A DNA stretch of 36,955 nucleotides from a virus (IMGVR_UViG_2681813166_000002:1-36955); one strand, 5' to 3'; shown: positions 2,574 to 36,955, numbered from the stretch's first letter. Notes: generated from the letters alone by a model not told the origin. Made by a program: numbers and translations.

Positions 2574-2593
2574 TTATTCTGGCCCGGATGTCA

Positions 2594-2992: not shown

Positions 2993-3067
2993 TTTTGGTG
3001 CCTTATATCAAGTGATGCGTGGAGTTAATCAGGGGGCAGGTATTCATGAATATAAATAGCAAGATTT

Positions 3068-4098: not shown

Positions 4099-4122
4099 AC
4101 TGCGGCGTTAACTGATAAGGCA

Positions 4123-4668: not shown

Positions 4669-4754
4669 CAGGTTCAGAAATGGCGAAAGCCGGTCTGCGC
4701 GAACAGAACCGACTTTCAGGTGCAAATCGTAACACACTCATTGCGGGAGGAATT

Positions 4755-5684
4755 ATGGCAAACACTGCTGAGATATTCAATTTTCCAGTGCCGGATGAGG
4801 CACAAAAGGAGCGGCGCGTGGCAGATCTCGATGATGGTTATACGCGCATTGCAAATGAGTTGCTGGAAGCTGTAATGCTGGCAGGATTAACACAGCACCA
4901 GCTTCTGGTCTTCCTGGCTGTCATGCGCAAAACATATGGCTTTAATAAAAAACTGGATTGGGTGAGCAACGAGCAACTTTCCGAATTGACCGGGATATTG
5001 CCGCACAAGTGTTCTGCTGCAAAAAGCGTTCTGGTAAAGCGTGGGATTCTTATTCAGAGCGGGCGGAATATCGGCATCAATAATGTGGTCAGTGAATGGT
5101 CAACATTACCCGAATCAGGTAAGAAAAATAAAGTTTACCTGAAAGAGGTAAATTTACCTGAATCAGGTAAGAAAAGTTTACCCAAATCAGGTAAAGGCGT
5201 TTACCCGAATCAGGTAAACACAAAAGACAAACTAACAAAAGACAATATAAAACCTTTTTCGTCCGAGAATTCTGGCGAATCCTCTGACCAACCAGAAAAC
5301 GATCTTCCTGTGGTGAAACCAGATGCTGCAATTCAGAGCGGCAGCAAGTGGGGGACAGCAGAAGACCTGACCGCCGCAGAGTGGATGTTTGACATGGTGA
5401 AGACTATCGCACCATCAGCCAGAAAACCGAATTTTGCTGGGTGGGCTAACGATATCCGCCTGATGCGTGAACGTGACGGACGTAACCACCGCGACATGTG
5501 CGTGCTGTTCCGCTGGGCATGCCAGGACAACTTCTGGTCCGGTAACGTGCTGAGTCCGGCCAAACTCCGCGACAAGTGGACCCAGCTCGAAATCAACCGA
5601 AACAAGCAACAGGCTGGCGTGACAGCCGGCAAACCAAAACTCGACCTGACGAACACTGACTGGATTTACGGGGTGGATTTATGA
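4755..5684 (+). CDS. O: Replication initiator O
   Basis: MANTAEIFNFPVPDEAQKERRVADLDDGY... and a C-terminal half (ENSGESSDQPENDL...TNTDWIYGVDL) matching my recollection of lambda O; GGGAGG RBS; track ORF extends upstream to 4665. Confidence 0.92.
   Translation: MANTAEIFNFPVPDEAQKERRVADLDDGYTRIANELLEAVMLAGLTQHQLLVFLAVMRKTYGFNKKLDWVSNEQLSELTGILPHKCSAAKSVLVKRGILIQSGRNIGINNVVSEWSTLPESGKKNKVYLKEVNLPESGKKSLPKSGKGVYPNQVNTKDKLTKDNIKPFSSENSGESSDQPENDLPVVKPDAAIQSGSKWGTAEDLTAAEWMFDMVKTIAPSARKPNFAGWANDIRLMRERDGRNHRDMCVLFRWACQDNFWSGNVLSPAKLRDKWTQLEINRNKQQAGVTAGKPKLDLTNTDWIYGVDL
5105..5262. repeat. Replication origin: five ~19-bp palindromic iterons followed by an AT-rich tract, inside O
   Basis: ATTACCCGAATCAGGTAAG, TTTACCTGAAAGAGGTAAA, TTTACCTGAATCAGGTAAG, TTTACCCAAATCAGGTAAA, TTTACCCGAATCAGGTAAA, then ACAAAAGACAAACTAACAAAAGACAATATAAAACC. 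Confidence 0.8.
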
Positions 5685-6382
5685 AAAACATCGCCGCACA
5701 GATGGTTAACTTTGACCGTGAGCAGATGCGCCGGATCGCCAACAACATGCCGGAACAGTACGACGAAAAGCCGCAGGTACAGCAGGTAGCGCAGATCATC
5801 AATGGTGTGTTCAGCCAGTTACTGGCAACTTTCCCTGCGAGCCTGGCTAACCGGGATCAGAACGAACTGAACGAAATCCGCCGCCAGTGGGTTCTGGCTT
5901 TCCGGGAAAACGGGATCACCACAATGGAACAGGTTAACGCAGGAATGCGCGTAGCCCGTCGGCAGAATCGACCATTCCTGCCATCACCCGGGCAGTTTGT
6001 TGCCTGGTGCCGGGAAGAAGCATCCGTTACCGCCGGGCTGCCAAACGCCAGCGAGCTGGTTGATATGGTTTACGAGTATTGCCGGAAGCGTGGCCTGTAT
6101 CCGGACGCAGAGTCTTATCCATGGAAATCAAACGCGCACTACTGGCTGGTTACCAACCTGTACCAGAACATGCGGGCCAATGCGCTTACTGATGCGGAAT
6201 TACGGCGCAAGGCTGCCGATGAACTGTCCTGTATGACCGCGCGAATTAACCGTGGTGAGGCGATACCTGAACCAGTAAAACAGCTTCCTGTCATGGGCGG
6301 TAGACCTTTAAATCGTGCACAGGCTTTGGCGAAGATCGCAGAAATCAAAGCTAAGTTCGGACTGAAAGGAGCAAGTGTATGA
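5681..6382 (+). CDS. P: Replication protein P (DnaB helicase loader)
   Basis: 233-aa ORF MKNIAAQMVNFDREQMRRIANNMPEQYDEKPQ... matches my recollection of lambda P. Confidence 0.95.
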   Translation: MKNIAAQMVNFDREQMRRIANNMPEQYDEKPQVQQVAQIINGVFSQLLATFPASLANRDQNELNEIRRQWVLAFRENGITTMEQVNAGMRVARRQNRPFLPSPGQFVAWCREEASVTAGLPNASELVDMVYEYCRKRGLYPDAESYPWKSNAHYWLVTNLYQNMRANALTDAELRRKAADELSCMTARINRGEAIPEPVKQLPVMGGRPLNRAQALAKIAEIKAKFGLKGASV

Positions 6383-6666
6383 CGGGCAAAGAGGCAATTA
6401 TTCATTACCTGGGGACTCATAAGAACTTCTGTGCGCAGGACGTTGCCGCGGTAACAGGCGCAACCGTAACCAGTATAAATCAGGCTGCGGCTAAAATGGC
6501 GCGGGCAGGAATCCTGGTCGTTGATGGTAAGGTCTGGCGAACGGTGTATTACCGGTTCGCTACCAGAGAAGAACGGGAAGGAAAGGTGAGCACGAATCTG
6601 ATTTTTAAGGAGTGTCGTCAAAGTGCCGCGATGAAGCGGGTGTTGGCTTTATATGGAAGAGAGTAG
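6379..6666 (+). CDS. ren: Ren
   Basis: 95-aa ORF MTGKEAIIHYLGTHKNFCAQDVAAVTGATVTSINQAAAKMARAG... recognised as lambda Ren. Confidence 0.9.
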   Translation: MTGKEAIIHYLGTHKNFCAQDVAAVTGATVTSINQAAAKMARAGILVVDGKVWRTVYYRFATREEREGKVSTNLIFKECRQSAAMKRVLALYGRE

Positions 6667-6730
6667 GTATGAGCAATTATTGTTACTAATTTTAGTTTTA
6701 CGACATTCGTGATAACTAAATAATTGATGT

Positions 6731-6985
6731 GTGGAACTGAATTATAAAGGGGATGATGTTTTGGGAAATAAAGAAAATATCGATTGTAAGCACACAAGAA
6801 GCTCATGCTATAAAAACAAGCAGATGAAAGATGTTATTTATATTACATTGCCTAAACTCACTGAAGAAGAAGTAGAGATTTTTAAGGGACCAATGCATAA
6901 AGCATTGCTTGCAGGGGTAAATGTTACAAAAAAGGCAGTTTCTGATGCCCTGCTAAACAAAGGGATAAAAGTTGAATTTAAATAG
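6731..6985 (+). CDS. Hypothetical small protein in AT-rich insertion; start uncertain (GTG 6731 or ATG 6824)
   Basis: 84-aa ORF on the track; weak translation signals; convergent with the 472-aa gene. Confidence 0.3.
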   Translation: MELNYKGDDVLGNKENIDCKHTRSSCYKNKQMKDVIYITLPKLTEEEVEIFKGPMHKALLAGVNVTKKAVSDALLNKGIKVEFK

Positions 6986-6996
6986 AGTAATTCAGT

Positions 6997-7028
6997 GGCA
7001 ACAATAGCACTCATTTGTGAGTGCTGTT
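6997..7028. terminator. Hairpin between convergent genes; possible bidirectional terminator
   Basis: AGCACTCA-tttg-TGAGTGCT perfect 8-bp stem with flanking extension; no clear U-tract on either strand. Confidence 0.35.
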
Positions 7029-7036
7029 GAAATTTA

Positions 7037-8455
7037 TTAGAAAATAATGTTTGCTATATCCGAGATAGCATTTAAAGAACCTCTGTGGTCACTTCCTGTT
7101 TTAGGTAAAATATAGGAATATCGAGGGTCTTCATTATATGTTAACTTCCAGTGTTTTCCATCGCTTGACGCACTGAAACCTAAGTCCTTTAAATTTCTTT
7201 GTGTTGCGCTATCCATGCTTCTGTAACCTGTTAAAGTCCTTTTAAGTAATTGGCGGCGACTCTCGGTTTCTTTATTGTATTCATTATTGGCAATTAGGGA
7301 TGATAAGATATGGTAGCTTCTACCAAATTCATTTTTATTTTTTATGGCAGTTTTTAGTGCGTCAATAATTATATTTTTGATTTCTCCATCAAAAAAGTCA
7401 GTCTCTTCACCAGCATTAAGCACAATGCTTCCTTGGGCTGAAGCTTGTGATTGAAGAGTGCGTACTCTGTGCTCTAAAGAGGAGATCTTATGCTTAAGAT
7501 CTTCTATTTGGTCATCTTTCGCAACATTATCGGCTTCGTAAAGCGCCATCAGTTCGCGTGTGTATTCTCCTCTTTCTTTGAGTGAGTTAATAGAGTCTTT
7601 CGTTTTTCTGGTTTGTATCTCACTCCATCCACTATCTGAGACAGGAGCCATTGTAGTCGTAGCTCTTACAACATCATCAAATAACTCATCTTCAAATTCT
7701 TTTGCGGTTTTCTCACCACGGCGATAAAAACTGATATTTTGACCCCGTGGCCAATAGATACCAACAGCACCAGCATAGGCATTTTTAGCATTTGTCTCAT
7801 TTTTTAGCTTAATAGAAAATAGTCTATTGCTAGGCTCAATTAATACATGTGCTAATCCGCATACCTTTCTTGCAAGGCGTTCTGGGATGATATTGTGAGC
7901 ATGTTCATTAAAAAAATACTTGGAGCTAACGTATATTATTGGTAGTCTGTTGTCAGTTTCACCATTTATAACTTTAGCTGCTATATTTAAATGTTCATCA
8001 GTATCATCTAAGGAATGAGGTTCGACTGACACCTTGAAAATATCATCAAGACCACCAGAAAATTTATCAATCAATCTCATAACAACTAATGGTTTCTTAG
8101 GTTGCGGGGCTAGATAAGCTGCATCTTGGCTTACAACGCTAGATTCCACCTGAATCCACATGGTATCAGTTTTGAGATTTTTATTAATTGAAATATCTGT
8201 TACCCATTTGTGTGGCTCAGATATTTTCGAATACCTAAAACAGCCTAAACTAGTATCTTTGTTTTTATAAGTTATTATATCAATTCTTTCATTTTTAGAC
8301 TCTATGAAGTACTCCTCGCTTTTATAATCACATACTAATTGTGCTGGAATAAAAGTTGTATGTGGTGAGTCGTTTACCCAAGAAAAACATTCATTAAAGA
8401 TCTCAGCTAGAGATGTGGAGTTTGAAACATAAAAACCAGTTGAGAAATATTTCAT
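7037..8455 (-). CDS. Hypothetical 472-aa orphan protein, candidate accessory or defence gene
   Basis: Long intact ORF in markedly AT-rich DNA, opposite strand to flanking phage genes; AAGGAAA RBS 7 nt upstream of ATG; no motif I recognise. Confidence 0.75.
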   Translation of the reverse strand: MKYFSTGFYVSNSTSLAEIFNECFSWVNDSPHTTFIPAQLVCDYKSEEYFIESKNERIDIITYKNKDTSLGCFRYSKISEPHKWVTDISINKNLKTDTMWIQVESSVVSQDAAYLAPQPKKPLVVMRLIDKFSGGLDDIFKVSVEPHSLDDTDEHLNIAAKVINGETDNRLPIIYVSSKYFFNEHAHNIIPERLARKVCGLAHVLIEPSNRLFSIKLKNETNAKNAYAGAVGIYWPRGQNISFYRRGEKTAKEFEDELFDDVVRATTTMAPVSDSGWSEIQTRKTKDSINSLKERGEYTRELMALYEADNVAKDDQIEDLKHKISSLEHRVRTLQSQASAQGSIVLNAGEETDFFDGEIKNIIIDALKTAIKNKNEFGRSYHILSSLIANNEYNKETESRRQLLKRTLTGYRSMDSATQRNLKDLGFSASSDGKHWKLTYNEDPRYSYILPKTGSDHRGSLNAISDIANIIF

Positions 8456-8472
8456 GAAATTTCCTTATTAAA

Positions 8473-8490
8473 AATGAGATTAATCTCATT
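8473..8490. promoter_or_regulatory. Perfect 18-bp palindrome in the 5' region of the 472-aa gene; candidate operator
   Basis: AATGAGATTAATCTCATT is its own reverse complement and lies between a promoter-like region and the RBS. Confidence 0.3.
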
Positions 8491-8729
8491 GGCTATGATA
8501 ATTGTTACCCTCCTTTGGATCTAGTGTTCATTTGACATAAGAACCTATTGATTCATCATAATCAACTCGCCATAATCATGTCATCGGAGCCTGAACAACT
8601 CCGGTGACTTCTGCGCTAAACGGGGACGTTTATGCGCACATACAATCCAAACTCTCTTCTCCCTTCACAGATGCAGAGATGCACCTGCGATTTTTTGCAT
8701 CCAGCGTTTGACCTCTGCGGAGGTGAAGC

Positions 8730-9185
8730 GTGAACCTCCCACAAGACGGCATCAAATTGCATCGTGGTAACTTCACTGCTATCGGTCAGCAGATCCAGCC
8801 TTATCTGGAGGACGGCAAATGCTTTCGCATGGTGCTTAAACCGTGGCGCGAAAGACGCAGTCTTTCCCAGAATGCACTCAGCCACATGTGGTACAGCGAA
8901 ATCAGTGAGTACCTCATCAGCAGGGGGAAATCGTTCGCTACTGCAGCATGGGTAAAAGATGCTCTCAAACACACATACCTCGGTTATGAAACCAAGGACC
9001 TGGTTGATGTCGTAACCGGCGAAATCACTACGATCCAGTCGTTACGCCATACCTCCGATCTTGATACCGGAGAGATGTATGTCTTCCTGTGTAAGGTTGA
9101 AGCCTGGGCGATGAATATTGGCTGCCACCTGACTATTCCGCAGAGCTGCGAGTTCCAGCTGCTGCGCGACAAGCAGGAGGCGTAA
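8730..9185 (+). CDS. ninB: NinB/Orf-family recombination protein
   Basis: 151-aa ORF with [21 protein letters not shown] resembling the NinB RSLDQN region; position after ren; GTG start with GGAGG RBS. Confidence 0.75.
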
Positions 9186-9355
9186 TGGCTACACCGCTTA
9201 TTCGGGTCATGAACGGACACATCTACAGAGTACCAAATCGTCGTAAGCGTAAGCCTGAGCTGAAGCCATCCGAAATACCAACACTGCTAGGGTATACCGC
9301 CAGCCTGGTTGATAAAAAATGGTTGCGACTGGCAGCAAGGAGGAATCATGGCTGA
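9185..9355 (+). CDS. ninE: NinE-like small protein (56 aa)
   Basis: Translated by hand (below the track size cutoff): [56 protein letters not shown]; stop overlaps next start as ATGGCTGA. Confidence 0.5.
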   Translation: MATPLIRVMNGHIYRVPNRRKRKPELKPSEIPTLLGYTASLVDKKWLRLAARRNHG

Positions 9356-9638
9356 TTTGAGAAAAGCAGCGCGTGGTCGGGAATGCCAGGTAAGAATCCC
9401 TGGCATATGTAATGGCAACCCTGAAACGTCTGTACTGGCACATATCCGGCTGGCTGGATTGTGTGGCACCGGTACCAAACCGCCAGACCTGATTGCCACC
9501 ATTGCATGTTCTGCCTGTCACGATGAGATCGACCGTCGCACGCATTTTGTTGACGCTGGATATGCAAAAGAATGCGCGCTGGAAGGTATGGCGAGAACAC
9601 AGGTTATCTGGCTGAAAGAGGGGGTTATTAAGGCGTGA
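9348..9638 (+). CDS. ybcO: YbcO-like / DUF1364 cysteine-rich protein
   Basis: [42 protein letters not shown]...CSACHDEID; AAGGAGG RBS; DLP12-like order NinB-NinE-YbcO-RusA. Confidence 0.7.
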
Positions 9639-9997
9639 ATACCTACAGCATCACATTACCCTGGCCTCCGAGCAATAATCGCTATTACCGCCATAATCGC
9701 GGGCGCACGCACGTCAGCGCAGAGGGACAGGCATACCGCGATAACGTCGCTCAAATCATTAAAAACGCAATGCTGGATATCGGCCTGGCTATGCCAGTGA
9801 AAATCCGCATTGAGTGTCACATGCCGGATCGCCGTCGCCGTGACCTGGATAATCTACAAAAGGCCGCTTTTGACGCACTCACCAAAGCGGGTTTCTGGCT
9901 GGATGATGCTCAGGTCGTTGATTACCGCGTTGTGAAGATGCCCGTTACCAAAGGTGGAAAGCTGGAGCTGACCATCACTGAACTGGGAGATGAATGA
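9635..9997 (+). CDS. rusA: RusA Holliday junction resolvase
   Basis: 120-aa [40 protein letters not shown]... recognised as E. coli RusA. Confidence 0.93.
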
Positions 9998-10134
9998 TGT
10001 TTGAGTCTTATATGGCAGAACGTCTTCGCCACCGCTGGATGCGCCTGCGCTTATATCGTTTCCCCGGTTCTGTTTTGACCGATTACCGAATACTGAGGAA
10101 TTACGCCAAAACACTGAAAGGAGCTGCCGCATGA
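9994..10134 (+). CDS. ylcG: YlcG-like small protein (46 aa)
   Basis: Translated by hand: [46 protein letters not shown]; ATGA overlaps with both neighbours. Confidence 0.6.
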
Positions 10135-10820
10135 ATACCCAATATTTACAGTATGTCCGCGAGCAACTCATGGTGGCTACCGCTGACTTGAGCGGAGCAA
10201 CGAAAGGCCAGCTTGAAGCCTGGCTGGAGCATGCACAATTTGATACTGGTACATACAAACGAAAGAAGCGACGCATTCTGGATGAGGTAACTGGCAAGAT
10301 TATTATGCTGGATAATCCGCCGATTTCCGGTAAACAGTCGTACGCAAAAGGTTCATCTGTCGCCCTGATCAGTCCGGTCGAGTTTTCAACCTCTTCATGG
10401 CGCCGCGCTGTTCTGTCTCTCGATGAGCATCAGAAAGCATGGTTGCTGTGGAGTTACAGTGAAAATATTCGCTGGGAGCATCAGGTTGCCATAACGCAGT
10501 GGGCATGGAGCGAGTTTAAGACTCTGTTGGGTACCAGAAAAATTGCAGGTAAGACACTGGAACGCCTGAAGAAGTTGATCTGGCTGGCGGCACAGGATGT
10601 GAAGAGCGAACTGGCAGGGCGTGAGGCTTATGAATACCAGGAACTGGCGTCACTGGTGGGAGTGACATCAAAAAACTGGTCTGAGACATTCACTGAACGC
10701 TGGGTTGCAATGAAGCACATTTTTCTACAGCTTGATAGCGAAGCTTTATTGCTTCTAACGAGAACACGTTCAAAACAAAAGGCGACATTTTCACAGCAAA
10801 ATATTGCAAAGCTGGATTAA
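10131..10820 (+). CDS. Putative late-gene antiterminator Q-like protein (229 aa)
   Basis: Position between rusA/ylcG and the late promoter/lysis genes; no motif verified. Confidence 0.5.
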   Translation: MNTQYLQYVREQLMVATADLSGATKGQLEAWLEHAQFDTGTYKRKKRRILDEVTGKIIMLDNPPISGKQSYAKGSSVALISPVEFSTSSWRRAVLSLDEHQKAWLLWSYSENIRWEHQVAITQWAWSEFKTLLGTRKIAGKTLERLKKLIWLAAQDVKSELAGREAYEYQELASLVGVTSKNWSETFTERWVAMKHIFLQLDSEALLLLTRTRSKQKATFSQQNIAKLD

Positions 10821-11000
10821 AAAGCATATATTTCATATAAATCTGATATTTTGCCAATGTTGTACGCACTGGCAGTAATCCAAATTCAAGCTCGAGGTTT
10901 AAAGCCTTGGGCTTTTCTGTTTCTGGGCGGTGAGTATCCTTCCAACGTACCCCAGCCAGGGTGTCTTCAGCTGTTGAGTTGATATTGCTTAACCCTCTGT

Positions 11001-11026
11001 TGCCAGCTACATGCTGGCTTTTTTAT
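11001..11026 (+). terminator. Intrinsic terminator (tR'-like) in the late leader
   Basis: GCCAGC-tacat-GCTGGC followed by TTTTTTATT. Confidence 0.6.
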
Positions 11027-11141
11027 TCCAGGCTTGCGGGGAGCATCAACTCCGTGCTTTGTCGTTAAATTACCCCGTGAGCCTGATTTCTGACATTTAA
11101 CGTCCCGGCCTTTTGTCGGCGGCGAAACATTGGCTATTCAT

Positions 11142-11447
11142 ATGCACGAAAAAGAGAGCCTTGCCGGAGCGTTCTGGCTCGTTTTGCTGATCATCGCAGG
11201 TTGGGGCGGTCTGGTCCGCTACCTGATAGATGTGAAGCAGAGTAAAGCAACGTGGAGTTGGATAAATGCTCTGGCTCAGATAGTGGTATCAGGATTCACC
11301 GGTGTTATTGGTGGCCTGATCAGCATCGAAAGTGGATTCAGTATTTACATGATTCTCGCGACAGCGGGGATTAGTGGTGCGATGGGTTCGGTTGCACTGA
11401 CGTACTTCTGGGAACGACTGACAGGGGTGAAAAATGCAAAATCTTAA
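11142..11447 (+). CDS. Holin (three predicted TM segments)
   Basis: Hydrophobic segments AFWLVLLIIAGWGGLV, INALAQIVVSGFTGVIGGLISI, IYMILATAGISGAMGSVALTYF; immediately upstream of the endolysin; possible dual start (TTG 11130 / ATG 11142). Confidence 0.7.
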   Translation: MHEKESLAGAFWLVLLIIAGWGGLVRYLIDVKQSKATWSWINALAQIVVSGFTGVIGGLISIESGFSIYMILATAGISGAMGSVALTYFWERLTGVKNAKS

Positions 11448-11910
11448 TCCTCAGCGTAAGGCTTTCCTCGATATGGTGGCATGGTCAGAAGGAACGGATA
11501 ACGGACGGCAGAAAACCAGAAATCATGGTTATGACGTCATTGTAGGCGGAGAGCTATTTACTGATTACTCCGATCACCCTCGCAAACTTGTCACGCTAAA
11601 CCCAAAACTCAAATCAACAGCAGCCGGGCGCTACCAGCTTCTTTCCCGTTGGTGGGATTCCTATCGTAAGCAGCTTGGCCTGAAAGACTTCTCTCCGAAA
11701 AGCCAAGACGCTGTGGCATTGCAGCAGATTAAAGAGCGTGGCGCTTTACCGATGATTGATCGCGGCGATATCCGGCAGGCAATCGACCGTTGCAGTAATA
11801 TCTGGGCTTCTTTGCCGGGTGCTGGTTACGGTCAGTATGAACATAAAATCGGTGACCTGATTTCCCGGTTTAAAGAGGCTGGTGGGGTGGTAAATAAAGT
11901 TGAGCTATAA
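11434..11910 (+). CDS. R: Endolysin, lambda R-type lytic transglycosylase
   Basis: QRKAFLDMVAWSEGTDNGRQKTRNHGYDVIVGGELFTDYSDHPRKLVTLNPKLKST... matches my recollection of lambda R. Confidence 0.93.
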   Translation: MQNLNPQRKAFLDMVAWSEGTDNGRQKTRNHGYDVIVGGELFTDYSDHPRKLVTLNPKLKSTAAGRYQLLSRWWDSYRKQLGLKDFSPKSQDAVALQQIKERGALPMIDRGDIRQAIDRCSNIWASLPGAGYGQYEHKIGDLISRFKEAGGVVNKVEL

Positions 11911-12286
11911 GCTGGTTATCGCTGCATTCTTCTTTACTGTCATCGGTTCTTTCATCTGGTCTGCCAACCACTACTACAGCAAATATCAGCACGAAAAGAA
12001 ACGTGCTGATGAGGCTGTACAAAATGTTGAATCTGCAACAGCCATTACCCGTAACGTCCTGCAATCACTGCAAATCGTCAATACAGTTATAGAGGTTAAC
12101 CAGCATGCAAAACAGCAGATCGCACTGGAGTCACAGAGAACCCAGGAAGATATCAAAGTGGCTGTTGCGGATGATGATTGTGCTTCACGTCCTGTGCCTG
12201 CCGCCGCTGCTGACCGGTTGCGGAAGTACGCGGATAGTTTACGTGCCAGTTCCGGCGGTACCACTACCGGCGAACCTAACCGCTGA
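11900..12286 (+). CDS. Rz: Rz-like i-spanin (N-terminal TM, coiled coil); apparent TTG start
   Basis: N-terminal LVIAAFFFTVIGSFIW helix followed by a charged helical region; follows the endolysin. Confidence 0.6.
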   Translation: MSYKLVIAAFFFTVIGSFIWSANHYYSKYQHEKKRADEAVQNVESATAITRNVLQSLQIVNTVIEVNQHAKQQIALESQRTQEDIKVAVADDDCASRPVPAAAADRLRKYADSLRASSGGTTTGEPNR

Positions 12287-12428
12287 AACCCCTCAACCGG
12301 TTATTCCTGATCCATTGACCTACGGTGGAAGCTTGGATTTGAATGTGAGTCTGTTGTCGGCTCTGGCTGCCTGTAATAGGGATAAAGCTGATATTCATAA
12401 AATTGAGGCAGAGAGGAGCTGGCCATAA
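12171..12428 (+). CDS. Rz1: Rz1-like o-spanin lipoprotein in the +1 frame of Rz, extending past the Rz stop
   Basis: Signal plus lipobox MMIVLHVLCLPPLLTGC, proline-rich mature part. Confidence 0.55.
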   Translation: MMIVLHVLCLPPLLTGCGSTRIVYVPVPAVPLPANLTAETPQPVIPDPLTYGGSLDLNVSLLSALAACNRDKADIHKIEAERSWP

Positions 12429-12719
12429 AGCTGTAAAGCGGAAAGACCGCGGCAAGTAGTGCCAATGCAGCAGTAATTACGCTGCCCCGAATACCCAAAG
12501 TTGCTGGTAGCCAGTTTCAGGTAAAAAGCTGATAGCGCGCTGGTGAGGGTTAACGGGAAGAAGCGCGCTGGTGCCCCAGGTTGATCGCCGGTCAGCTTTC
12601 GGTTAGTGGTGAGGGATTCACGAGATACCTCTGACACATGGTTTCAAGGGCATGAGCGCGGCCACTGCGAGAGTGTGGCAGGCATTACAGCAGGCATTCA
12701 CCGAGTACCTGCGATAATG

Positions 12720-13115
12720 TTACGCAATGAGGCTACCAGCTAATGTACATAAATGCGGCCAGAGTGGCGTAAGAACAGTGACATGATCTGATAGTGATGA
12801 CATTAATTTAATGTATGAGTTTGAGGCGCTCTCTTTAGATGGAGCCGTTTTAATTTCGTCAAGTTTGTTATTAATTTCATTTTTTAATTTTTCATCAATG
12901 TTCAAGTTTAATAATTGAATTTTAGTTTGTTCTAACACAGTTAGCGCGTCTAAGCTGATAACTTGAACTGAAGAAAACTTATTATTGTAAGCTTCATCGA
13001 AGCGAATGCCTACGTCATATCCTACCGATGTTATGTTAGAAAGGTGATTTCCAAAACCCTTTTCAATATAAATCCCTGTAGAGGGCAGAGAAGGTGCATT
13101 TTTGTCTTTACTCAT
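12720..13115 (-). CDS. Hypothetical 131-aa protein (moron between lysis and packaging genes)
   Basis: Minus-strand ORF whose 5' two-thirds lie in AT-rich DNA with its own AT-rich upstream region; helical, charged repeats (IDEKLKNEINNKLDEIK). Confidence 0.45.
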   Translation of the reverse strand: MSKDKNAPSLPSTGIYIEKGFGNHLSNITSVGYDVGIRFDEAYNNKFSSVQVISLDALTVLEQTKIQLLNLNIDEKLKNEINNKLDEIKTAPSKESASNSYIKLMSSLSDHVTVLTPLWPHLCTLAGSLIA

Positions 13116-13256
13116 TTGATGTCCACCAATTTTAAGTTGATTTCAAAGTAACATTTACAACCTTAGGTTTGTGATGGTCAATCATTATCTATCCAGAATG
13201 AGATCTCATACAGGTCATTTGTTTATTGCATATACACTACCGAAGAGAATCTTACA

Positions 13257-13607
13257 ATGCCACCACGAACACCAAAAGCCTGCCGCGTCCGCGGTTGCCG
13301 CCATACCACGACTGACCCGTCAGGCTATTGCGAAAGCCACAAAAGTGAAGGCTGGAAGCAATACAAGCCGGGCCAGTCCCGCCATCAGCGTGGTTATGGT
13401 TCGAAGTGGGACGGTATCCGGGTGCGTGTCCTGAAGCGTGACAAAGGCCTGTGTCTGTTATGTCTGCGTGCTGGTGTGGCGCGTGAAGCGAAAACCGTTG
13501 ACCACATCATCCCTAAAGCACATGGCGGCACTGATGCCGACAGTAATCTGCAGAGTCTGTGCTGGCCGTGTCATAAGGCGAAGACGGCCCGTGAACGGCT
13601 TAAGTGA
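13257..13607 (+). CDS. HNH endonuclease (terminase-associated)
   Basis: 116-aa ORF with paired cysteines (CRVRGC...C; CLLC...CWPCH) and DHIIPKAHGGTD...N motif; immediately upstream of terminase. Confidence 0.85.
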   Translation: MPPRTPKACRVRGCRHTTTDPSGYCESHKSEGWKQYKPGQSRHQRGYGSKWDGIRVRVLKRDKGLCLLCLRAGVAREAKTVDHIIPKAHGGTDADSNLQSLCWPCHKAKTARERLK

Positions 13608-25611: not shown

Positions 25612-26142
25612 ATGAAAGGCTATATCACAGCAAGTGTAATTCTTGGAGTAGCGGCTATTTTTTCATCTCTCATAATCTCTGGCAACATCTCCTTTAAAGA
25701 TGAACATATTATTCAGTTATCTGGAGGAGCTATAAAACTTGGTGATGTTTATAAAGAAAATAAATTGATAAGTGCAAAGATTATTTTTCCAGATAATCAG
25801 GGTGAACAGATTCTTGTTGTCGACGGCAATCCTGAAAACTTTAAGGAGGATTTTCAGGAGAAATTAAATAAAGTAATAAAAACTTTAAATGCGTCAAAGA
25901 AAAAAGATGAAGAGAAAGTTAGCCTGGATAATTTAAGTGTTATTGAAGAGTCTAAACTAGAGCTCGTTTCTGCGGTGCGTTACTCTGCTCAGTATGTTCC
26001 TATGTTTACTCTGACGCTGGACAAAAAAGAAATTACCATGCCTAAAAATACGGTAATATTTCCATTTGCCAGCGATGAAACAGCTAAGTATTTAAATGAA
26101 CAACAGCAAAAGTATAAAGATTCGTTGTTTCTGACTCGCTAA
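25612..26142 (+). CDS. Hypothetical membrane-anchored moron protein (176 aa)
   Basis: AT-rich ORF with N-terminal TM/signal anchor ASVILGVAAIFSSLIISG, own RBS and own terminator, inserted between tail genes. Confidence 0.65.
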   Translation: MKGYITASVILGVAAIFSSLIISGNISFKDEHIIQLSGGAIKLGDVYKENKLISAKIIFPDNQGEQILVVDGNPENFKEDFQEKLNKVIKTLNASKKKDEEKVSLDNLSVIEESKLELVSAVRYSAQYVPMFTLTLDKKEITMPKNTVIFPFASDETAKYLNEQQQKYKDSLFLTR

Positions 26143-29581: not shown

Positions 29582-30626
29582 ATTTCAGCGCCCGACGCTG
29601 GCAGAAAATATCAGTATGCTCCGTAACGATTTATTCGCCAGGCTGGACGTCAGCGACACGCTCCGGCGCATGGATGAAGACGTGCGGGCAAAGGTGTATG
29701 CGGCGGCGCTGCATACGGTTTACGGGTACATCGATTATCTGGCATTGAACATGCTGCCTGACCTGTGCGATGAGTCCTGGCTGGCGCGACATGCTGCGAT
29801 GAAACGGTGTTCGCGCAAGGGGGCCACGACTGCCAGCGGGTATATGCGCTGGGAAGGCGTCAGCGATGGCCTGAAGGTGACCGCCGGGAGTGTTATTCAG
29901 CGCGATGACCTGGTTCAGTACACGGCAACTGCCGATGCAACCAGCGCCGGTGGTGTCCTGCGCGTGCCGATCGCCTGCTCAAGTGCAGGCGCGGTCGGTA
30001 ACGCTGACGACGGTACAGCATTAATCCTGGTCACGCCGGTGAATGGTCTGCCGTCTTCCGGCGTGGCAGATACCCTGACAGGTGGATTTGATACTGAAGA
30101 GCTGGAAACGTGGCGCGCCCGCGTCATTGAGCGGTATTACTGGACGCCGCAGGGCGGGGCTGACGGGGACTATGTCGTCTGGGCTAAAGAAGTGCCCGGC
30201 ATTACCCGCGCATGGACATACCGTCACTGGATGGGAACGGGAACTGTCGGTGTGATGATTGCCAGCAGTGACCTGATTAATCCCATTCCGGAAGAATCAA
30301 CGGAAACGGCGGCAAGACAACATATCGAGCCACTGGCCCCGGTGGCAGGCTCTGATTTGTATGTATTCAGGCCGGTGGCGCATACGGTGGATTTTCATAT
30401 CCGCGTGATGCCGGACACACCGGAAATACGGGCTGCCATCACCGCGGAGTTGCGTTCGTTTCTTCTGCGTGATGGTTATCCGCAGGGAGAACTGAAGGTA
30501 TCGCGTATCAGTGAGGCGATTTCCGGTGCGAACGGGGAATATAGCCATCAGTTGCTTGCACCGGCAGACAATATCTCCATTGCGAAAAATGAACTGGCGG
30601 TTCTGGGGACGATTTCATGGACGTGA
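29568..30626 (+). CDS. Baseplate J-like protein (Mu gp47-like)
   Basis: 352-aa ORF in conserved order. Confidence 0.8.
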
Positions 30627-31201
30627 CAAACGATGATTACATCCGTCTGTTGTCGGCACTGTTGCCCCCCGGTCCGGCGTGGTCAGCCGGCGATCCGGCG
30701 ATTGCCGGTGCGGCACCGTCATTAACCCGCGTTCATCAGCGTGCGGATGCCCTGATGCGGGAGCTGGATCCGCGCACAACCACCGAACTGATAAACCGCT
30801 GGGAGCGTCTGTGCGGCCTGCCGGATGAATGTATTCCGGCAGGGACGCAGACCCTTCGCCAGCGTCAGCAACGGCTGGATGCGAAGGTTAATCTGGCGGG
30901 CGGCATCAATGAGGATTTTTACCTTGCACAGCTTGCTGCCCTGGGCAGACCAGACGCCACCATCACGCGATACGACAAAAGCACGTTCACCTGCTCATCT
31001 GCCTGTACTGACGCGGTGAATGCGCCGGAATGGCGGTATTACTGGCAGGTCAACATGCCAGCCGCCACCAACACCACCTGGATGACATGTGGCGATCCCT
31101 GTGATTCCGCACTGCGTATCTGGGGGGACACCGTTGTCGAGTGCGTGCTTAACAAACTCTGCCCGTCGCATACCTACGTAATTTTTAAATATCCGGAGTA
31201 A
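30617..31201 (+). CDS. Tail protein (Mu gp48-like)
   Basis: 194-aa ORF in conserved order preceding the fibre gene. Confidence 0.7.
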
Positions 31202-31204
31202 TCC

Positions 31205-31996
31205 ATGCATCGTATAGACACGAAAACCGCGCAGAAGGATAAGTTCGGCGCGGGTAAAAACGGTTTTACCCGTGGTAACCCCCAGACCGGCACACCTGCC
31301 ACCGATCTTGATGATGACTACTTTGATATGTTGCAGGAAGAACTCTGCAGCGTGGTGGAGGCATCCGGTGCCAGCCTGGAGAAGGGGCGGCATGACCAGC
31401 TGCTTACCGCGCTTCGTGCGCTGCTGTTAAGCCGCAAGAATCCGTTTGGCGATATCAAATCGGATGGCACGGTGAAAACGGCTCTCGAAAACCTTGGTTT
31501 GGGAGAAGGCTCTGCATTACCTGTTGGTGTGCCTGTTCCATGGCCTTCAGCCACACCGCCAACAGGCTGGCTGAAATGCAACGGTGCAGCTTTTTCTGCT
31601 GAAGAATACCCGGAACTGGCAAAGGCTTACCCGACAAATAAATTGCCTGATTTACGCGGTGAATTTATTCGTGGCTGGGATGACGGGCGTGGTATTGATG
31701 CTGTACGTGCCTTGCTAAGTCTTCAGAATGGAGGAGTGGAATCACACACCCACCAAGGGCAGCTCTTCAGAGTTAGTGATTATCGTACAAAAGAAATACC
31801 AGCATCAGAAGTTATGGGAAGAGGATATATTGCAAGCCTGACGCCGGGTGCTGATAGCCCACTTGATTTTGATGATTATTCTGTATCTTCTAATCCAAAT
31901 GGATATTTTGTCGGGAATCAGAGAACAACAGCATATGGGATAAATGAAACCCGTCCACGGAATATTGCATTTAACTATATCGTGAGGGCTGCATAA
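31205..31996 (+). CDS. Tail fibre protein: constant N-terminal part fused to variable C-terminal part in its current orientation
   Basis: 263-aa ORF with a tail-collar-like segment ([22 protein letters not shown]); recombination site inside the gene at ~31482-31507. Confidence 0.8.
31482..31507. promoter_or_regulatory. Left crossover site of the invertible segment (gix/hix-like)
   Basis: CTCTCGAAAACC-TT-GGTTTGGGAGAA, a 26-bp imperfect palindrome resembling the hixL/gixL consensus as I recall it. Confidence 0.6.
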
Positions 31997-32598
31997 TGGA
32001 TAACGCTGTATTAAATAGCGAGTTTATTGCTACAAAGGCGGGGAATATTACCGTCTATAACTATGATGGCGAAACACGGGAATATATTTCCACATCAACT
32101 GAATATCTTGCCGTTGGTGTCGGTATCCCTGCATATTCCTGTTTAGATGCCCCTAGCATACATAAGGCGGGTTATGCTATCTGCCGTTCGATGGATTTAA
32201 ACTCATGGGAATATGTGCCAGACCATCGCAGTGAAATTGTCTATAGCACCGAAACGGGAGATACCAAAGAAATCACAGCTCCGGGTGATTACCCTGAAAA
32301 TACAACCACTATCGCACCGTTAACGCCATACGATAAATGGGATGGTGAGAAATGGGTGACAGATACTGAGGCACAACACGGTGCTGCAGTAGAAGTGGCA
32401 GAAGCACAACGCCAGTCACTGATTGATACAGCAATGGCTTCCATTAGTCTGATTCAGCTGAAATTACAGGCCGGACGGAAGTTGACGCAGGCAGAAACAA
32501 CCCGACTTAGCGCCGTGCTGGATTACATTGACGCGGTGGCGGCAACAGATACCAGCACCGCGCCGGATGTCATCTGGCCTGAACTGCCGGAGGTGTAG
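31996..32598 (+). CDS. Tail fibre assembly protein (U-like), expressed orientation
   Basis: 200-aa ORF directly after the fibre gene with ATG overlap. Confidence 0.75.
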   Translation: MDNAVLNSEFIATKAGNITVYNYDGETREYISTSTEYLAVGVGIPAYSCLDAPSIHKAGYAICRSMDLNSWEYVPDHRSEIVYSTETGDTKEITAPGDYPENTTTIAPLTPYDKWDGEKWVTDTEAQHGAAVEVAEAQRQSLIDTAMASISLIQLKLQAGRKLTQAETTRLSAVLDYIDAVAATDTSTAPDVIWPELPEV

Positions 32599-33007
32599 GC
32601 CATTCAATATCTGGCGCACCGGTAGTATCGACTAGCTCCAGTGCGTCCAGATAATCCAGCCACGAATTATATTGCGCCAGTTCCTCGCCTTTCAGACGAC
32701 CAATAGCGGCTTTACCGGGCCATTGTTTACTGTTCATGTATTCGTTGGCCTGATTAAGCAATAATTGCCTTTCTGATTCTGCCTGTTGAATAAGTTCTTC
32801 ATGTGATGGTGGAGGTATTAGTGCCCATGTGGGTAATCCATTTTTTCCTGCAACACGAATTTTGTCATCTGGAGGCGTATTGATTGCAAATTCATTATAA
32901 ACATCATCACTGACAGCCAGAGCATCATCTGGCCATGAATTTGCATTAATGTAATCATCCTTAAGTGCAGGATTCACAAAAATGTTTAAAGATGGACTAT
33001 AAAACAT
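32570..33007 (-). CDS. Alternative tail fibre assembly protein (U'-like), opposite orientation
   Basis: 145-aa minus-strand ORF, convergent with U and sharing the C-terminal motif (APDIEWPTPP versus APDVIWPELP). Confidence 0.7.
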   Translation of the reverse strand: MFYSPSLNIFVNPALKDDYINANSWPDDALAVSDDVYNEFAINTPPDDKIRVAGKNGLPTWALIPPPSHEELIQQAESERQLLLNQANEYMNSKQWPGKAAIGRLKGEELAQYNSWLDYLDALELVDTTGAPDIEWPTPPAVQAR

Positions 33008-33008
33008 A

Positions 33009-33398
33009 TTACACCCCTATAGCGATATAACGACCTAATACAGCGTTTGCAGCAGTCGCTATGCTTGAAAAACCGCGGAACTGATTTGATGTAATTGCAG
33101 AAGCCGACAGGATTCCTGCGCCTGAAGGTGTATGCCCCACATGACTAACTATCATTCCATAACATGCTGACGGAAAGGCAAAAGGAAAATCGTTAAGATA
33201 TCCGGCATCTTCACCACCAGACCCACCAAATCTCGCCTGCCCCCACTGAATAATCAGTGTTCTCCGGGAACCTGAAATAATTAACGGGATCGTTACATAC
33301 CCATTCAGGCCAATGACACCCGATGCAGTGCCAGCCAGAGATAATTCTCCCAAACCAACGTTTATGAAAATGTAGAAATAACGAGCAAATGGCATCAT
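33009..33398 (-). CDS. Alternative tail-fibre C-terminal segment (Sv'-like); no promoter or start of its own in this orientation
   Basis: Minus-strand ORF contains the right crossover site in frame (…NVGLGELSLAG… versus …[11 protein letters not shown]… in the expressed fibre). Confidence 0.65.
   Translation of the reverse strand: MMPFARYFYIFINVGLGELSLAGTASGVIGLNGYVTIPLIISGSRRTLIIQWGQARFGGSGGEDAGYLNDFPFAFPSACYGMIVSHVGHTPSGAGILSASAITSNQFRGFSSIATAANAVLGRYIAIGV
33345..33370. promoter_or_regulatory. Right crossover site of the invertible segment, partly degenerate
   Basis: TTCTCCCAAACC-AA-CGTTTATGAAAA; its left arm is identical to the reverse complement of the left site's right arm; the outer arm is degenerate. 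Confidence 0.5.
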
Positions 33399-33424
33399 TC
33401 CTGCTTTTGTCAGGGAGATCCACC

Positions 33425-33515
33425 ATGCTTATTGGCTACGTACGCGTATCAACAAATGACCAGAACACCGCTCTGCAACGTAATTCGTTGAACTGTGCAG
33501 AATGTGAGTTGATTT
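33425..33515 (+). pseudogene. Truncated Gin/Hin/Pin-family serine DNA invertase (first ~30 codons only)
   Basis: MLIGYVRVSTNDQNTALQRNSLNCAECELI matches the invertase N-terminus including the catalytic serine region, then diverges into AT-rich sequence with an early stop. Confidence 0.8.
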
Positions 33516-33699
33516 TGAAGATAAAATCAGTGGCACAAAGTTCAATAAAAATATACCTGACACATTATACGAAGAAGATTTTATGGTTTTTTCTGTTGAT
33601 TTTTTAACATGGCTGCATGGATACAGATATGACGAAGGTAATGTAGAGTAGTAAGAACATAAATAGGCTGACAAAAGTTCAGCCTACAGTCTTTTCATC

Positions 33700-34584
33700 T
33701 TATCTTACAGCTGGTGTTTGAGGTGGCTTCGTTTTCGTTTTTTTCACGCCCTTGTTTTTTACTATTTCCAGTGCCCTTTTCTGAAGGTCTACTCCTGATG
33801 GATAGAGCACGTTGAGAATGTGCTCAGTCAGTCGGTACGCATCAAACAGATCACTTTGAGTTAAACCTGATGCTGCGTGACTCCCTTCATTACCTAACCA
33901 CTTAACAGCAAATAAAAGTCCATCTAACTTTCCAAATGTTTTTTTTCTATGTGCAGCTATGGTAATTCGTTCATGAAGAGACATGAGGCACCGCTCGCGC
34001 TTGGACTTACCCTTCCGCTTAATTAATTTGTATTTTGGTATATTGTATTCAGATAAAAGATTCTCTATTGCCATTCTAACCTTGTTTGCTGCTGAGCTTG
34101 GCGAAAGTAGTGTCAGTGAAAATGCTTCTTGCAAATTCTCATATACTTCAGATGGACATGTTGTGGGGATATCTATGTACTGTAGCGGAGGGATAAATAC
34201 TTTGGGGATGTAATAGCTAAAGTACTCCTGTATCTGTTCATCTCGATCATTTACAGTAATATCCATCTCAACATAACCAGTGCCTGAGCAGACGACAACT
34301 TCCTCGCATTCATGATTTTCGCATACCAGAACCGCAGTAAAAACCTCTTTAATCAGTTCTGTATCGGAGCCGAGAATCTCAATAAGATTATGTGATTCAC
34401 TAGTTACCTTTGCATAAAATTTTTCTTTATTTAATTTCAAACTGCTTCTTCCGCAACTTGGGCACGGGTATGTCACGTAGTCATTTACTTTGAAAGGTTT
34501 ACCAATTGAAAACTTATCCATTTTTCTCTCGTTAATTTCTCTATGAATGGTTGCTACTGAGTTTACCAACACTGTGTTTTGCAT
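33700..34584 (-). CDS. Hypothetical 294-aa protein: N-terminal zinc ribbon plus C-terminal helical domain with an R-x5-H motif
   Basis: AT-rich ORF; CPSCGR...CENHECEE cysteine cluster; C-terminal ERITIAAHRKK and KWLGNEGSHAAS. Confidence 0.7.
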   Translation of the reverse strand: MQNTVLVNSVATIHREINERKMDKFSIGKPFKVNDYVTYPCPSCGRSSLKLNKEKFYAKVTSESHNLIEILGSDTELIKEVFTAVLVCENHECEEVVVCSGTGYVEMDITVNDRDEQIQEYFSYYIPKVFIPPLQYIDIPTTCPSEVYENLQEAFSLTLLSPSSAANKVRMAIENLLSEYNIPKYKLIKRKGKSKRERCLMSLHERITIAAHRKKTFGKLDGLLFAVKWLGNEGSHAASGLTQSDLFDAYRLTEHILNVLYPSGVDLQKRALEIVKNKGVKKTKTKPPQTPAVR

Positions 34585-34807
34585 GCAATTTGCATGGAGT
34601 AGAATAAAAAAATCGGAAGTTGTCCGCTATCTCACAAATTTCCGCAAGCAATAACATCGCTAGCTTTAATACTTTAGCTCTCTCGATTTCTTGTTAATAG
34701 GAGTATGGGATTAATAATCCATACTCCTCGTTTTAAGGCAGCTAATAGACGCCTTTTGATGGGGTTAATAATATCATAAAAGAATTTAAAAATAACTTCA
34801 TTGTCTA

Positions 34808-35248
34808 TTAGTAACTAATGGTTATCGTAAACATAAATGTAGTTAGTTGACAAAAACCTACGACTGATAACATTATTTTTATCCAGAAAAAAAATAAGGC
34901 GGGGTAATTTATACAATTTGGTGGTTCTTTTAAATTATGTGTTTTTTTATCAAGTCCATTTTCCTCAAGATATTTTTCTCTTCTACGACCAAGCATTCCC
35001 CAAATAATAGTGGTTGCAGCATATTGCAGAAAATCCATTATTAAAGACATAACCAAGAACACTAATGACCAATATAGTGTATTGGGAAATAATAGAATTG
35101 TCTCAGACGAAGATCCTACTGAACTATTACTTATACTTCCCTTGAATAACCATATCAATGCAATCCCACCTAGACATGATTGCCTGTTAATATTTGATAG
35201 TGAACCGCTCGCATCATAGTATGCTTGCTGTATTTTATCTAAAAGCAT
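34808..35248 (-). CDS. Hypothetical integral membrane protein (146 aa)
   Basis: Several hydrophobic helices; start overlaps the stop of the upstream small gene. Confidence 0.6.
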   Translation of the reverse strand: MLLDKIQQAYYDASGSLSNINRQSCLGGIALIWLFKGSISNSSVGSSSETILLFPNTLYWSLVFLVMSLIMDFLQYAATTIIWGMLGRRREKYLEENGLDKKTHNLKEPPNCINYPALFFFWIKIMLSVVGFCQLTTFMFTITISY

Positions 35249-35535
35249 TACAGTACCTTCTTAATATTTGCACGTTTAGGCCCTGTACTGGTAGTCATTT
35301 TAGGCACATTTTCGGGGATGAGAATATTTTCGCTTGAAATTATTGCCCAGTTGCCTTTTTTTATTTGTCTGGTATTTAAATATGCTCGCCCATTTTTTAT
35401 AGTAATAAACCTTGAGTTTATAGAAACTCTTCTCGTCCTGTCAGGATTATCTTTTTTGGCTAATGTAATGCTGACTCTGGTAATCTTTGGATTTGATATA
35501 TGCATATGTACACGTAAGCCACGACTTTTTTTCAT
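35248..35535 (-). CDS. Hypothetical small basic protein (95 aa), first gene of a two-gene operon
   Basis: GAGGGG RBS 6 nt upstream of ATG (MKKSRGLRVHMHISNPK...); the track ORF extends further upstream without an RBS. Confidence 0.5.
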   Translation of the reverse strand: MKKSRGLRVHMHISNPKITRVSITLAKKDNPDRTRRVSINSRFITIKNGRAYLNTRQIKKGNWAIISSENILIPENVPKMTTSTGPKRANIKKVL

Positions 35536-36208
35536 TATCCCCTCACTGATACTAGCTTTAACACTGTGATACAATAACTTATATTTATGAATAAAATCAA
35601 TTGATAAATTGTAGCATTTCGGTGGCATGGAAGTTACTGTCACTACAAGCAGGTAACAACACACTCTCCTTGTTTATAACAGTAACGCACTTCAATCATG
35701 TCAAATATATGGCGGTCGAGAAATAAAGTGGCCTATAGCTATTCACTCGGGAACTGCGGCTCCTTTGCGTATCCTTTTTTGTCTCTTCACCTTCTGGTCG
35801 GTGTCTTGCTGAGATTTATAACTTCCTGTTTTTGTTGGTGTTGTCCTTACACCCTCCAATCATGATTGGCTGGCGGTAGTTGAACCCGCAGACACGTCGT
35901 ATGCAAGGACTTGCTGCGGCTGGATGGTGGACTTTCGATAGTGCGAGTATTGAATGATTTCCATCTATTATAGATTTTACCGTATTTCGGCATGAATGAA
36001 ATTGAATATCCTCCCACCGACCCTCCATGACTTTACACCACTGTCTCTGGGGCTGCTATGTGCCAAAAGCTGACATCTTCATTTTCGATGAATTTGTCAG
36101 CTACATATTATGACGCTTTCATATTTTGATGCTTTTCCCTAAATAATACTAACCCAATTCTCATCTATTTCGCTATCAATCTTAATCGTATTTAATAACT
36201 TGCAGTCA

Positions 36209-36955
36209 CTATCTATATAGCCTTTTTGCTAATGGTTCTATGGATGATGAATAGCAAAACTCTCTATTCATATTGTCTATCAATTCAAAAACTTGATCTT
36301 CAACCTCATAGTAATCATTTCTAGGCAATCGAGGATGGATTATTCCAAAATTTCGAAGCAAATTTGTGATGTTATTTTGATGTCTTACGTAAGAGAAAGA
36401 ACCTGATTTGGCTAGTGAACATGCAGTATTTGAGTCACTTATAGCACTGTTTAATTTTACAATCAGATTGCAGTAGTCTTGAGATATGGATGTAGAGCCA
36501 GAACGAGACTTATTAAAAATGATGTTATACCATTTGAATATATCAAATGAAGATGCGGATAGACGATCTCTTTTATTTATTTCGTATGATAAGTACTCTT
36601 GAAATATCTTAAAGTGTGATATATGGTTGCCAAGAGCTGACACGCTGACACTATTAGTATACCCAAGCAACGCAACAACTATTCCACCTATGCTAGCGAC
36701 TAACCCCAACAATATGAAAGTTGCTTGCAATATTAATATTGATTGTGAGTAACCTTTAGTAAAATTTGAAATGCAGGTATTATTGAAACAAAAACTCCGA
36801 TTAAAAAAACCTTCTTGCATTCCAGTTAAAATAAATGAAGTTACAAAAAGCATTATGCCTAGTGTAACAATAGTAATCAAACATAGAAGCAAGATTCTAA
36901 GAGAGTGTGAGTCTATTTTTTTTAGAAGGATATAACTTTTAAAAAAGTTTTTCAT
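36209..36955 (-). CDS. Hypothetical protein with two N-terminal TM helices and a soluble C-terminal domain (248 aa; start at window edge)
   Basis: AT-rich ORF; hydrophobic segments ILLLCLITIVTLGIMLFVTSFIL and ILILQATFILLGLVASIGGIVVALLGY; the ATG is the last three bases of the window, so the true start could lie beyond. Confidence 0.55.
   Translation of the reverse strand: MKNFFKSYILLKKIDSHSLRILLLCLITIVTLGIMLFVTSFILTGMQEGFFNRSFCFNNTCISNFTKGYSQSILILQATFILLGLVASIGGIVVALLGYTNSVSVSALGNHISHFKIFQEYLSYEINKRDRLSASSFDIFKWYNIIFNKSRSGSTSISQDYCNLIVKLNSAISDSNTACSLAKSGSFSYVRHQNNITNLLRNFGIIHPRLPRNDYYEVEDQVFELIDNMNREFCYSSSIEPLAKRLYR

Follow-up and report, generated by a model that had tools for sequence, protein, structure and literature searches.

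Gene content of the tail-fibre region

The window, by which we mean the whole stretch of 36,955 nucleotides that was analyzed, is a prophage. It has a lambdoid early region (RecT, CI-like repressor, O, P and Q), and its late genes share 97% identity with those of the Shigella/E. coli myoviruses SfI, SfII, SfIV, SfV and vB_EcoM-689R6. The counterpart prophage in EC6563 is integrated at tRNA-Thr beside proA. The baseplate operon ends with a ymfQ-like gene, which is directly followed by the tail-fibre gene, two tail-fibre assembly genes, an alternative fibre tip on the opposite strand and what is left of an invertase gene (Table 1). This gene order corresponds to the stfP-tfaP-tfaE-stfE-pinE layout of the e14 element in Escherichia coli K-12.

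The expressed fibre consists of a constant N-terminal part, which extends up to a crossover point at 31494/31495 and ends in the residues LGLGE, and a variable C-terminal tip of the Collar type. The protein is 70% identical to the K-12 e14 StfP2 chimera, which we assembled in silico. The chaperone gene following it, whose orthologue is annotated as tfaE in RefSeq, belongs to the Collar-type tip, while the second chaperone gene belongs to a Gp53-like tip and is convergent with the first, the ends of the two overlapping. An identical 145-aa Tfa protein is encoded in P2-like prophages that possess an intact invertase. The alternative tip itself resides in a silent slot as part of a 129-aa open reading frame that starts with a short leader (MMPFARYFYIFINVGLGE) outside the invertible segment. 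By position, this open reading frame corresponds to K-12 StfE2, also built in silico, to which it shows 44% identity. All four reading frames of the cassette are intact and have strong Pfam matches. A promoter scan in the vicinity of the slot reading frame and the start of pin gave no signal above shuffle expectation.

Table 1. Position and support of the features at the fibre locus, in window coordinates
Feature	Position	Strand	Size	Support or remark
ymfQ-like gene	30617-31201			end of baseplate operon, directly before fibre gene
Tail-fibre gene, expressed copy	31205-31996	+	263 aa	open reading frame; Pfam Collar 1.2e-15
pixL site, within fibre gene	31482-31507	-	26 bp	TTCTCCCAAACCAAGGTTTTCGAGAG; 26/26 to published pixL; central dinucleotide 31494-31495
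Invertible P-type segment	31495-33357	.	1863 bp between crossover points	in-silico inversion regenerates sites and frames
TfaE-like tail-fibre assembly chaperone for Collar-type tip	31996-32598	+	200 aa	Pfam Caudo_TAP 4.9e-31
Second tail-fibre assembly chaperone for Gp53-like tip	32570-33007	-	145 aa	Pfam Caudo_TAP 1e-32
Alternative fibre tip in silent slot	33009-33398	-	129 aa	Pfam Gp53-like_C 1.3e-12
pixR site	33345-33370	+	26 bp	TTCTCCCAAACCAACGTTTATGAAAA; 26/26 to published pixR
pinE-type invertase gene remnant	33425-33541	+		DNA alignment with intact pin genes
Putative Fis-dependent recombinational enhancer	33447-33509	.		homology to hin
AT-rich cargo island replacing rest of pin	33542-36955	.		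GC 32-41%
DUF4145 gene in island	33700-34584	-		Pfam DUF4145 2.4e-10
Small island reading frame	34808-35248	-		no family match
Small island reading frame	35248-35664	-		no family match
Retron Ec48 2TM effector in island	36209-36955	-		PADLOC 2TM_IV 1.9e-82

Recombination sites and the invertible segment

Two 26-bp sites flank the variable region. They agree in every position with the pixL and pixR sequences given in Table 3 of PMC3241671, and an exact-match search found both 26-mers in e14 of E. coli K-12 (L004) as well. The pixR sequence of the window moreover adjoins intact invertase genes in K-12 e14, in G4/9 and in P2-like prophages. An earlier note on this DNA had described the site within the fibre gene as matching the hix/gix pattern. 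This stands in so far as a 26-bp site of the Din family is concerned, but the sequence is of the pix type and not gix, cix or hix. The inverted partner that the same note placed in the opposite-strand alternative fibre does reside there, in the form of a perfect pixR. Comparison with the published sequences identifies both sites as base-perfect copies of functional pixL and pixR.

The two sites are imperfect palindromes and inverted relative to each other, and the central dinucleotide on the site strand is AA in both. The 37-kb window contains their common inner 14-mer, TTCTCCCAAACCAA, in exactly two places, without mismatch and in inverted orientation, while shuffled controls yielded a mean of 0.26 matches with two mismatches allowed. 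A repeat search of the window returned the pixL/pixR pair as the top inverted repeat, with a length of about 14-19 bp. A chance inverted repeat can be ruled out on the basis of the exact 26-mer matches and the shuffle counts. In the right site, the outer arm CGTTTATGAAAA had been regarded as degenerate. It is in fact the arm that pixR natively has in e14, a switch whose inversion has been measured experimentally (PMC12529663), and there is therefore no sign of decay.

Inversion was performed in silico with cuts between 31494 and 31495 and between 33357 and 33358. It regenerated both sites and kept both reading frames. By this operation the 263-aa Collar-tipped fibre A is converted into a 212-aa fibre B with a Gp53-like tip, using the same start codon and the same LGLGE junction, while the reading frame beginning with the leader grows from 129 to 180 aa. 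The proposed in-frame fusion of the constant N-terminus with the alternative C-terminus at LGLGE is thus reproduced, and the postulated segment of about 1.86 kb with two convergent fibre-assembly genes is recovered as 1863 bp enclosing two Caudo_TAP genes. Alternative C-termini that join a common N-terminus in frame, each accompanied by its own chaperone, are features of host-range switches of the S/U-S'/U' type known from Mu. The GC content of the segment amounts to about 45-46%, compared with 55-58% in the baseplate genes. In its present state, the window corresponds to the inverted StfP2/StfE2 configuration of K-12. In every cis feature tested the locus is a Din-family tail-fibre switch of the Pin/pix type and of the e14 class, which confirms the former assignment to the Gin/Hin-type invertible tail-fibre switches and specifies it further.

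The invertase remnant and the adjoining cargo island

The start codon of the pin remnant is located at 33425. Upon alignment with the intact pin genes from G4/9, K-12 and P2-like prophages, homology to pinE ends at about 33541-33546, i.e. around nucleotide 118 of the gene. Even this short stretch is disrupted by a -1 frameshift, in which a run of five T is reduced to four at 33513-33516, and the open frame continues into foreign sequence until it reaches a stop at 33607. The Pfam Resolvase match covers residues 3-30 only and scores 21.7 bits compared with a curated cut-off of 23.3 bits; in tblastn and blastp searches with PinE against the window only residues 1-34 were covered. No other serine recombinase is encoded within the window. 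An intact gene of this family encodes a small serine invertase with a Resolvase catalytic domain and an HTH_7 domain. The resident invertase gene is therefore dead, in full agreement with the truncation that had been noticed before. RefSeq labels the orthologue as 'frameshifted; incomplete; missing C-terminus'.

The remainder of pin is replaced by an AT-rich island that encodes a DUF4145 protein, two small proteins and a retron Ec48 effector. The reverse transcriptase of the retron is outside the window and is seen in EC6563 according to its RefSeq annotation. Remnants of pin in various relatives are of different length, with about 39 codons for the allele present in the window and 63 and 122 codons for others; the 63-aa remnant adjoins GmrSD in a relative. 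Defence cargo next to pin varies among relatives: DUF4145 and the retron Ec48 effector are present here, and GmrSD, a LEM-3-like GIY-YIG protein or McrA occur in relatives.

Orientation of the cassette in relatives with the same remnant

The same remnant, including the frameshift and the junction GGCACAAAGTTCAATA, is shared by the window, PSUO2 (L001), EC6563 (L002), L006-L008, L010, L033, L034, L039 and L040. The common frameshift and junction point at a single truncation that spread afterwards. When L006 was inverted in silico between the pix centres, it exhibited no difference to L010 over 10,014 nt and none to L007 from position 2672 to the end; L006 and L010 are separate assemblies. Among 24 DUF4145-carrying contigs examined, twelve were of the L006 kind and eight of the flipped L007 kind. 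L034 and L039 constitute a second flipped pair, with a different cassette of 1596 bp, and in both of them a 360-bp stretch that starts at pixR, crosses the remnant and enters the island matches the window at 100% identity. As one and the same remnant allele is present in both orientations, the flips postdate the truncation: inversion has occurred at the pix sites after the loss of pin, on cis DNA identical to that of the window. The view expressed in the earlier note that the switch is frozen can consequently not be upheld for the class, as exemplified by L006 versus L010/L007 and L034 versus L039. The exception that it allowed for, another invertase acting in trans, proves to be the one that applies.

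EC6563 and L040 likewise have the cassette in the orientation opposite to that of the window. At first sight (99.5% identity), EC6563 appeared to be a clonal flip. Its structural genes are, however, 97% identical, its cassette has diverged and its early genes are not the same, and for this reason we do not use it as proof of inversion. Exact-protein look-ups with the 145-aa Tfa, the 263-aa fibre and the retron effector retrieved P2-like prophages, relatives with an intact or differently truncated pin and relatives with other cassettes, and among these no flipped twin combining the window's own cassette with the truncated pin. The competence of this very locus therefore rests on the identical cis DNA in its relatives.

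A putative Fis enhancer in the remnant

Din-family invertases require a Fis-bound enhancer in cis. Starting from the hin sequence and the positions of its Fis cores, we mapped two putative cores of 15 bp onto pin, one at 33447-33461 (TATCAACAAATGACC) and the other at 33495-33509 (GTGCAGAATGTGAGT). The two cores precede both the frameshift and the point of truncation. They are spaced 48 bp centre to centre, with about 96 bp separating the first from the centre of pixR, and the distal core carries a T at +7 where the consensus has C. This arrangement agrees with the geometry described for hin, in which the 65-bp enhancer has a Fis site at each end, the proximal one situated about 100 bp from hixL, with ATTTA and TAATG tracts in the DNA between the two (PMC3798978). 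In the case of Mu, the title of Kahmann et al. (1985), as cited in PMC3798978, places the element within the invertase gene. By analogy, the pin remnant probably still holds a Fis enhancer, the survival of which would account for the continued flipping of the orphan cassette. The location of the enhancer may also bear on the reported locking of the K-12 segment by full deletion of pinE.

Candidate invertase donors

Which enzymes could serve the orphan cassette? Plausible candidates are the invertases of co-resident P2-like prophages with an exact pixR, those of other e14-like prophages and PinQ/PinR. The P2-like prophages contain an intact invertase, 86% identical to PinE, beside an exact pixR and they were seen in both orientations (L011-L020). 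Of 5426 complete E. coli genomes, the majority contain PinE-type 3' gene sequence. PinQ, which is 38% identical to PinE, has been demonstrated experimentally to flip the e14 P segment in trans (PMC12529663). The same work reports that the segment was locked upon deletion of pinE in K-12 although pinQ and pinR are present on the chromosome. The native level of a distant invertase may be too low in this case, or the enhancer of the deleted gene may be required.

Donor loci were counted in six RefSeq genomes carrying the remnant with a chimeric query composed of the unique island and the 3' part of the invertase gene, the counts referring to chromosome records only. By this count, EC6563, in which the cassette is flipped, possesses three further pinE-like and two pinR-like loci, and one or two such invertase-like loci are found in FDAARGOS_1267, AST216 and OZ547033. 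The chromosome records of PSUO2 and B1172 contain neither a pinE-like nor a pinR-like gene, and both have the cassette in the window's orientation. Some hosts may be truly locked. Given the perfect sites and the occurrence of the same allele in both orientations, locking would at most be a property of the prophage complement of a particular host and not of the locus.

Proposed mode of switching

We propose, with a probability of roughly 0.8, that the locus is an orphan P cassette of the e14 type in an SfI/SfII/SfV-like myovirus prophage, which is not frozen but relies on an invertase borrowed from elsewhere. A serine invertase of the Din family would bind to pixL in the fibre gene and to pixR, cleave at the central AA/TT dinucleotides and rotate the 1863-bp segment. 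Either the Collar-type or the Gp53-like tip, together with its own chaperone, would thereby be set in frame behind the constant N-terminus, and the tip fused to the leader of the silent slot would be switched at the same time. The island with the defence genes for DUF4145 and the retron Ec48 effector replaced pin beyond nucleotide ~118 and destroyed the gene. Both 26-bp sites outlasted this event in exact form, and the Fis enhancer very probably did so too, in the part of the 5' end that remains. Such an orphan switch would not flip by itself but only when a co-resident element supplies a compatible invertase.

The cassette could instead be a frozen relic, permanently locked with the Collar-type tip expressed and with the second tip and its chaperone as decaying passengers. 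A dead pin gene without any further serine recombinase in the window would fit, as would the orientation of PSUO2 and B1172 with their donor-free chromosome records and the reported locking of K-12 lacking pinE (PMC12529663). We nevertheless consider a relic unlikely: both sites are base-perfect, the four cassette reading frames are intact and the same remnant allele is found in both orientations in otherwise identical DNA and with two types of cassette. Exchange between prophages does occur, as is evident from cassettes of five lengths (1863, 1848, 1893, 1837 and 1596 bp) adjoining the same remnant, from the location of 55 of the 58 SNPs between L006 and L008 inside the segment and from the window's Tfa being common to P2-like prophages, but the idea that homologous recombination or cassette replacement caused the different orientations, which would then be silent on switch function, is highly improbable because an inverted repeat of only about 14-19 bp is too short for efficient RecA recombination, because L006 is distinguished from L010/L007 by nothing other than an inversion whose ends coincide exactly with the pix centres and because a flipped cassette acquired from another prophage would not show 100% identity both inside and outside the segment.

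If the cassette depends on a borrowed invertase, the orphan state might even be maintained rather than accidental, although we regard this extension as rather doubtful. Recurrent clipping of pin by cargo swaps would then generate a 'slave' switch in which both the fibre tip and the StfE2-like protein of leader and tip are set by the invertases of other prophages, with each clipped remnant keeping pixR and the putatively enhancer-bearing 5' end. If true, host range or a receptor-masking defence resembling that of StfE2 would be coupled to the other prophages of the cell.

A truncated invertase gene beside an invertible cassette with intact cis sites should not be taken as indicating a locked switch, because Din-family invertases act in trans and E. 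coli genomes usually harbor several of them. We suggest annotating the locus as a P segment of the e14 type that is accompanied by an invertase pseudogene. It illustrates, in a natural setting, a fibre switch that is governed by the other prophages present in the cell. The mechanism as well as trans-complementation among Din invertases are already known and no new question is raised; the main value of the analysis lies in the corrected annotation and not in a follow-up programme.

Comparison with known invertible systems

The closest resemblance is to the P segment and PinE of K-12 e14. Both 26-mers and the LGLGE junction are identical, the fibre N-terminus is nearly so, and ymfQ, the fibre gene, two convergent tfa genes, the inverted alternative tip and pin follow each other in the same order. 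In contrast to the window with its ~118 nt of frameshifted sequence, the invertase gene is intact in K-12, where it is followed by mcrA instead of DUF4145 and the retron Ec48 effector. The tip alleles share 44-72% identity. Furthermore, e14 is a 15-kb remnant, whereas the phage in the window looks like a complete SfI/SfII-like prophage. StfE2 has been reported to block adsorption of T2 (PMC12529663). The reading frame in the silent slot, comprising leader and Gp53-like tip, is the counterpart of K-12 StfE2; with an identity of only 44%, however, an anti-T2 role cannot be assumed for it.

A pair of inverted sites, each of 26 bp and with a core of 2 bp, is common to the window and the G/Gin, C/Cin and Hin systems of Mu, P1 and Salmonella (family table in PMC3241671), and in Mu and P1 it is also the C-termini of tail fibres and the chaperones that are exchanged. 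Gin, Cin and Hin act on sites of their own (gix, cix and hix) and not on pix, and their enhancer occupies the 5' end of the invertase gene at a distance of about 100 bp to the closest site, a position at which the window has a putative counterpart. Unlike in these systems, the invertase must come from elsewhere. This latter trait has a parallel in the action of PinQ/PinR on the e14 P segment, where a cassette between pix sites is inverted by the enzyme of a different prophage (Kirigo et al., 2025; PMC12529663). There, PinE of K-12 is intact, whereas reliance on an outside enzyme is obligatory for the window.

P2-like prophages with an invertible tip of the H gene (L011-L020) share with the window the exact pixR, the inner arm of the left site and a 100% identical 145-aa Tfa. 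They differ by an intact invertase of 197 aa, by a baseplate and a constant fibre region of the P2 type and by the outer arm of the left site, which reads GGTATGTGAGAA.

Mosaic structure and movement of the island

The prophage in the window is a mosaic. Its identity with the related prophage of E. coli strain EC6563 is 99.6% in the right-hand island and ~97% in the structural genes. The sole megablast match of the whole early region (1-13257) is one 511-bp stretch of 89% identity. The module made up of the island and the remnant of the e14-type invertase gene pin has moved between prophage backgrounds. The island itself (33542-36955) is AT-rich (32-41% GC) and took the place of the 3' part of pin. 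In three relatives sharing the pin remnant and its junction (L006-L008), the DUF4145 gene and both small ORFs of the island are present and the retron is absent; these three genes may therefore form a module apart from the retron, possibly one serving defence.

Four further loci (L023, L029, L025 and L031) encode exactly the fibre protein of the window, but their pin genes are cut at other points and adjoin other cargo. Cargo exchange appears to clip pin repeatedly from the 3' side.

Features of the window and clipped pin genes of relatives
Feature	Position	Strand	Remarks
472-aa ORF	7037-8455	-	opposite strand, between replication genes and Q; Pfam: no match
176-aa ORF	25612-26142	+	no family match; between tape-measure and DNA-circulation genes
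Silent-slot ORF, 129 aa	33009-33398	-	leader and Gp53-like tip; K-12 StfE2 counterpart by position
DUF4145 gene	33700-34584	-	AT-rich island
Small ORF 1	34808-35248	-	island; Pfam/PADLOC: no match
Small ORF 2	35248-35664	-	island; Pfam/PADLOC: no match
Retron Ec48 2TM effector	36209-36955	-	PADLOC 2TM_IV, 1.9e-82
pin remnant, 63 aa	L023 8270-8461; L029 8231-8422		adjoins GmrSD type IV restriction gene
pin remnant, 122 aa	L025 8217-8585; L031 8217-8585		adjoins other genes

Exchange of fibre tips

Both homologous recombination and inversion operate on the fibre tips. In the otherwise identical loci L006 and L008, 55 of the 58 SNPs lie inside 1 kb of the invertible segment (locus positions 9000-9999); this cluster marks a patch of recombination within the tip of the fibre. 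Cassettes of 1596-1893 bp lie next to the same pin remnant, so tips are swapped by homologous recombination besides being inverted. K-12 StfE2 has been reported to block T2 adsorption (2025 paper, PMC12529663), but the silent-slot protein of the window is only 44% identical to it, and a promoter scan around its gene and the pin start found no convincing promoter.

Further variable positions

The 472-aa ORF, with a weak PADLOC match to HEC-07 (1e-9), may represent prophage-borne defence cargo. At the position of the 176-aa ORF, EC6563 has merely ~40 bp between the two flanking genes and other relatives carry different small genes (tRNA_anti-like, bPH_1 and others). This interval looks like a moron hot spot within the tail operon.
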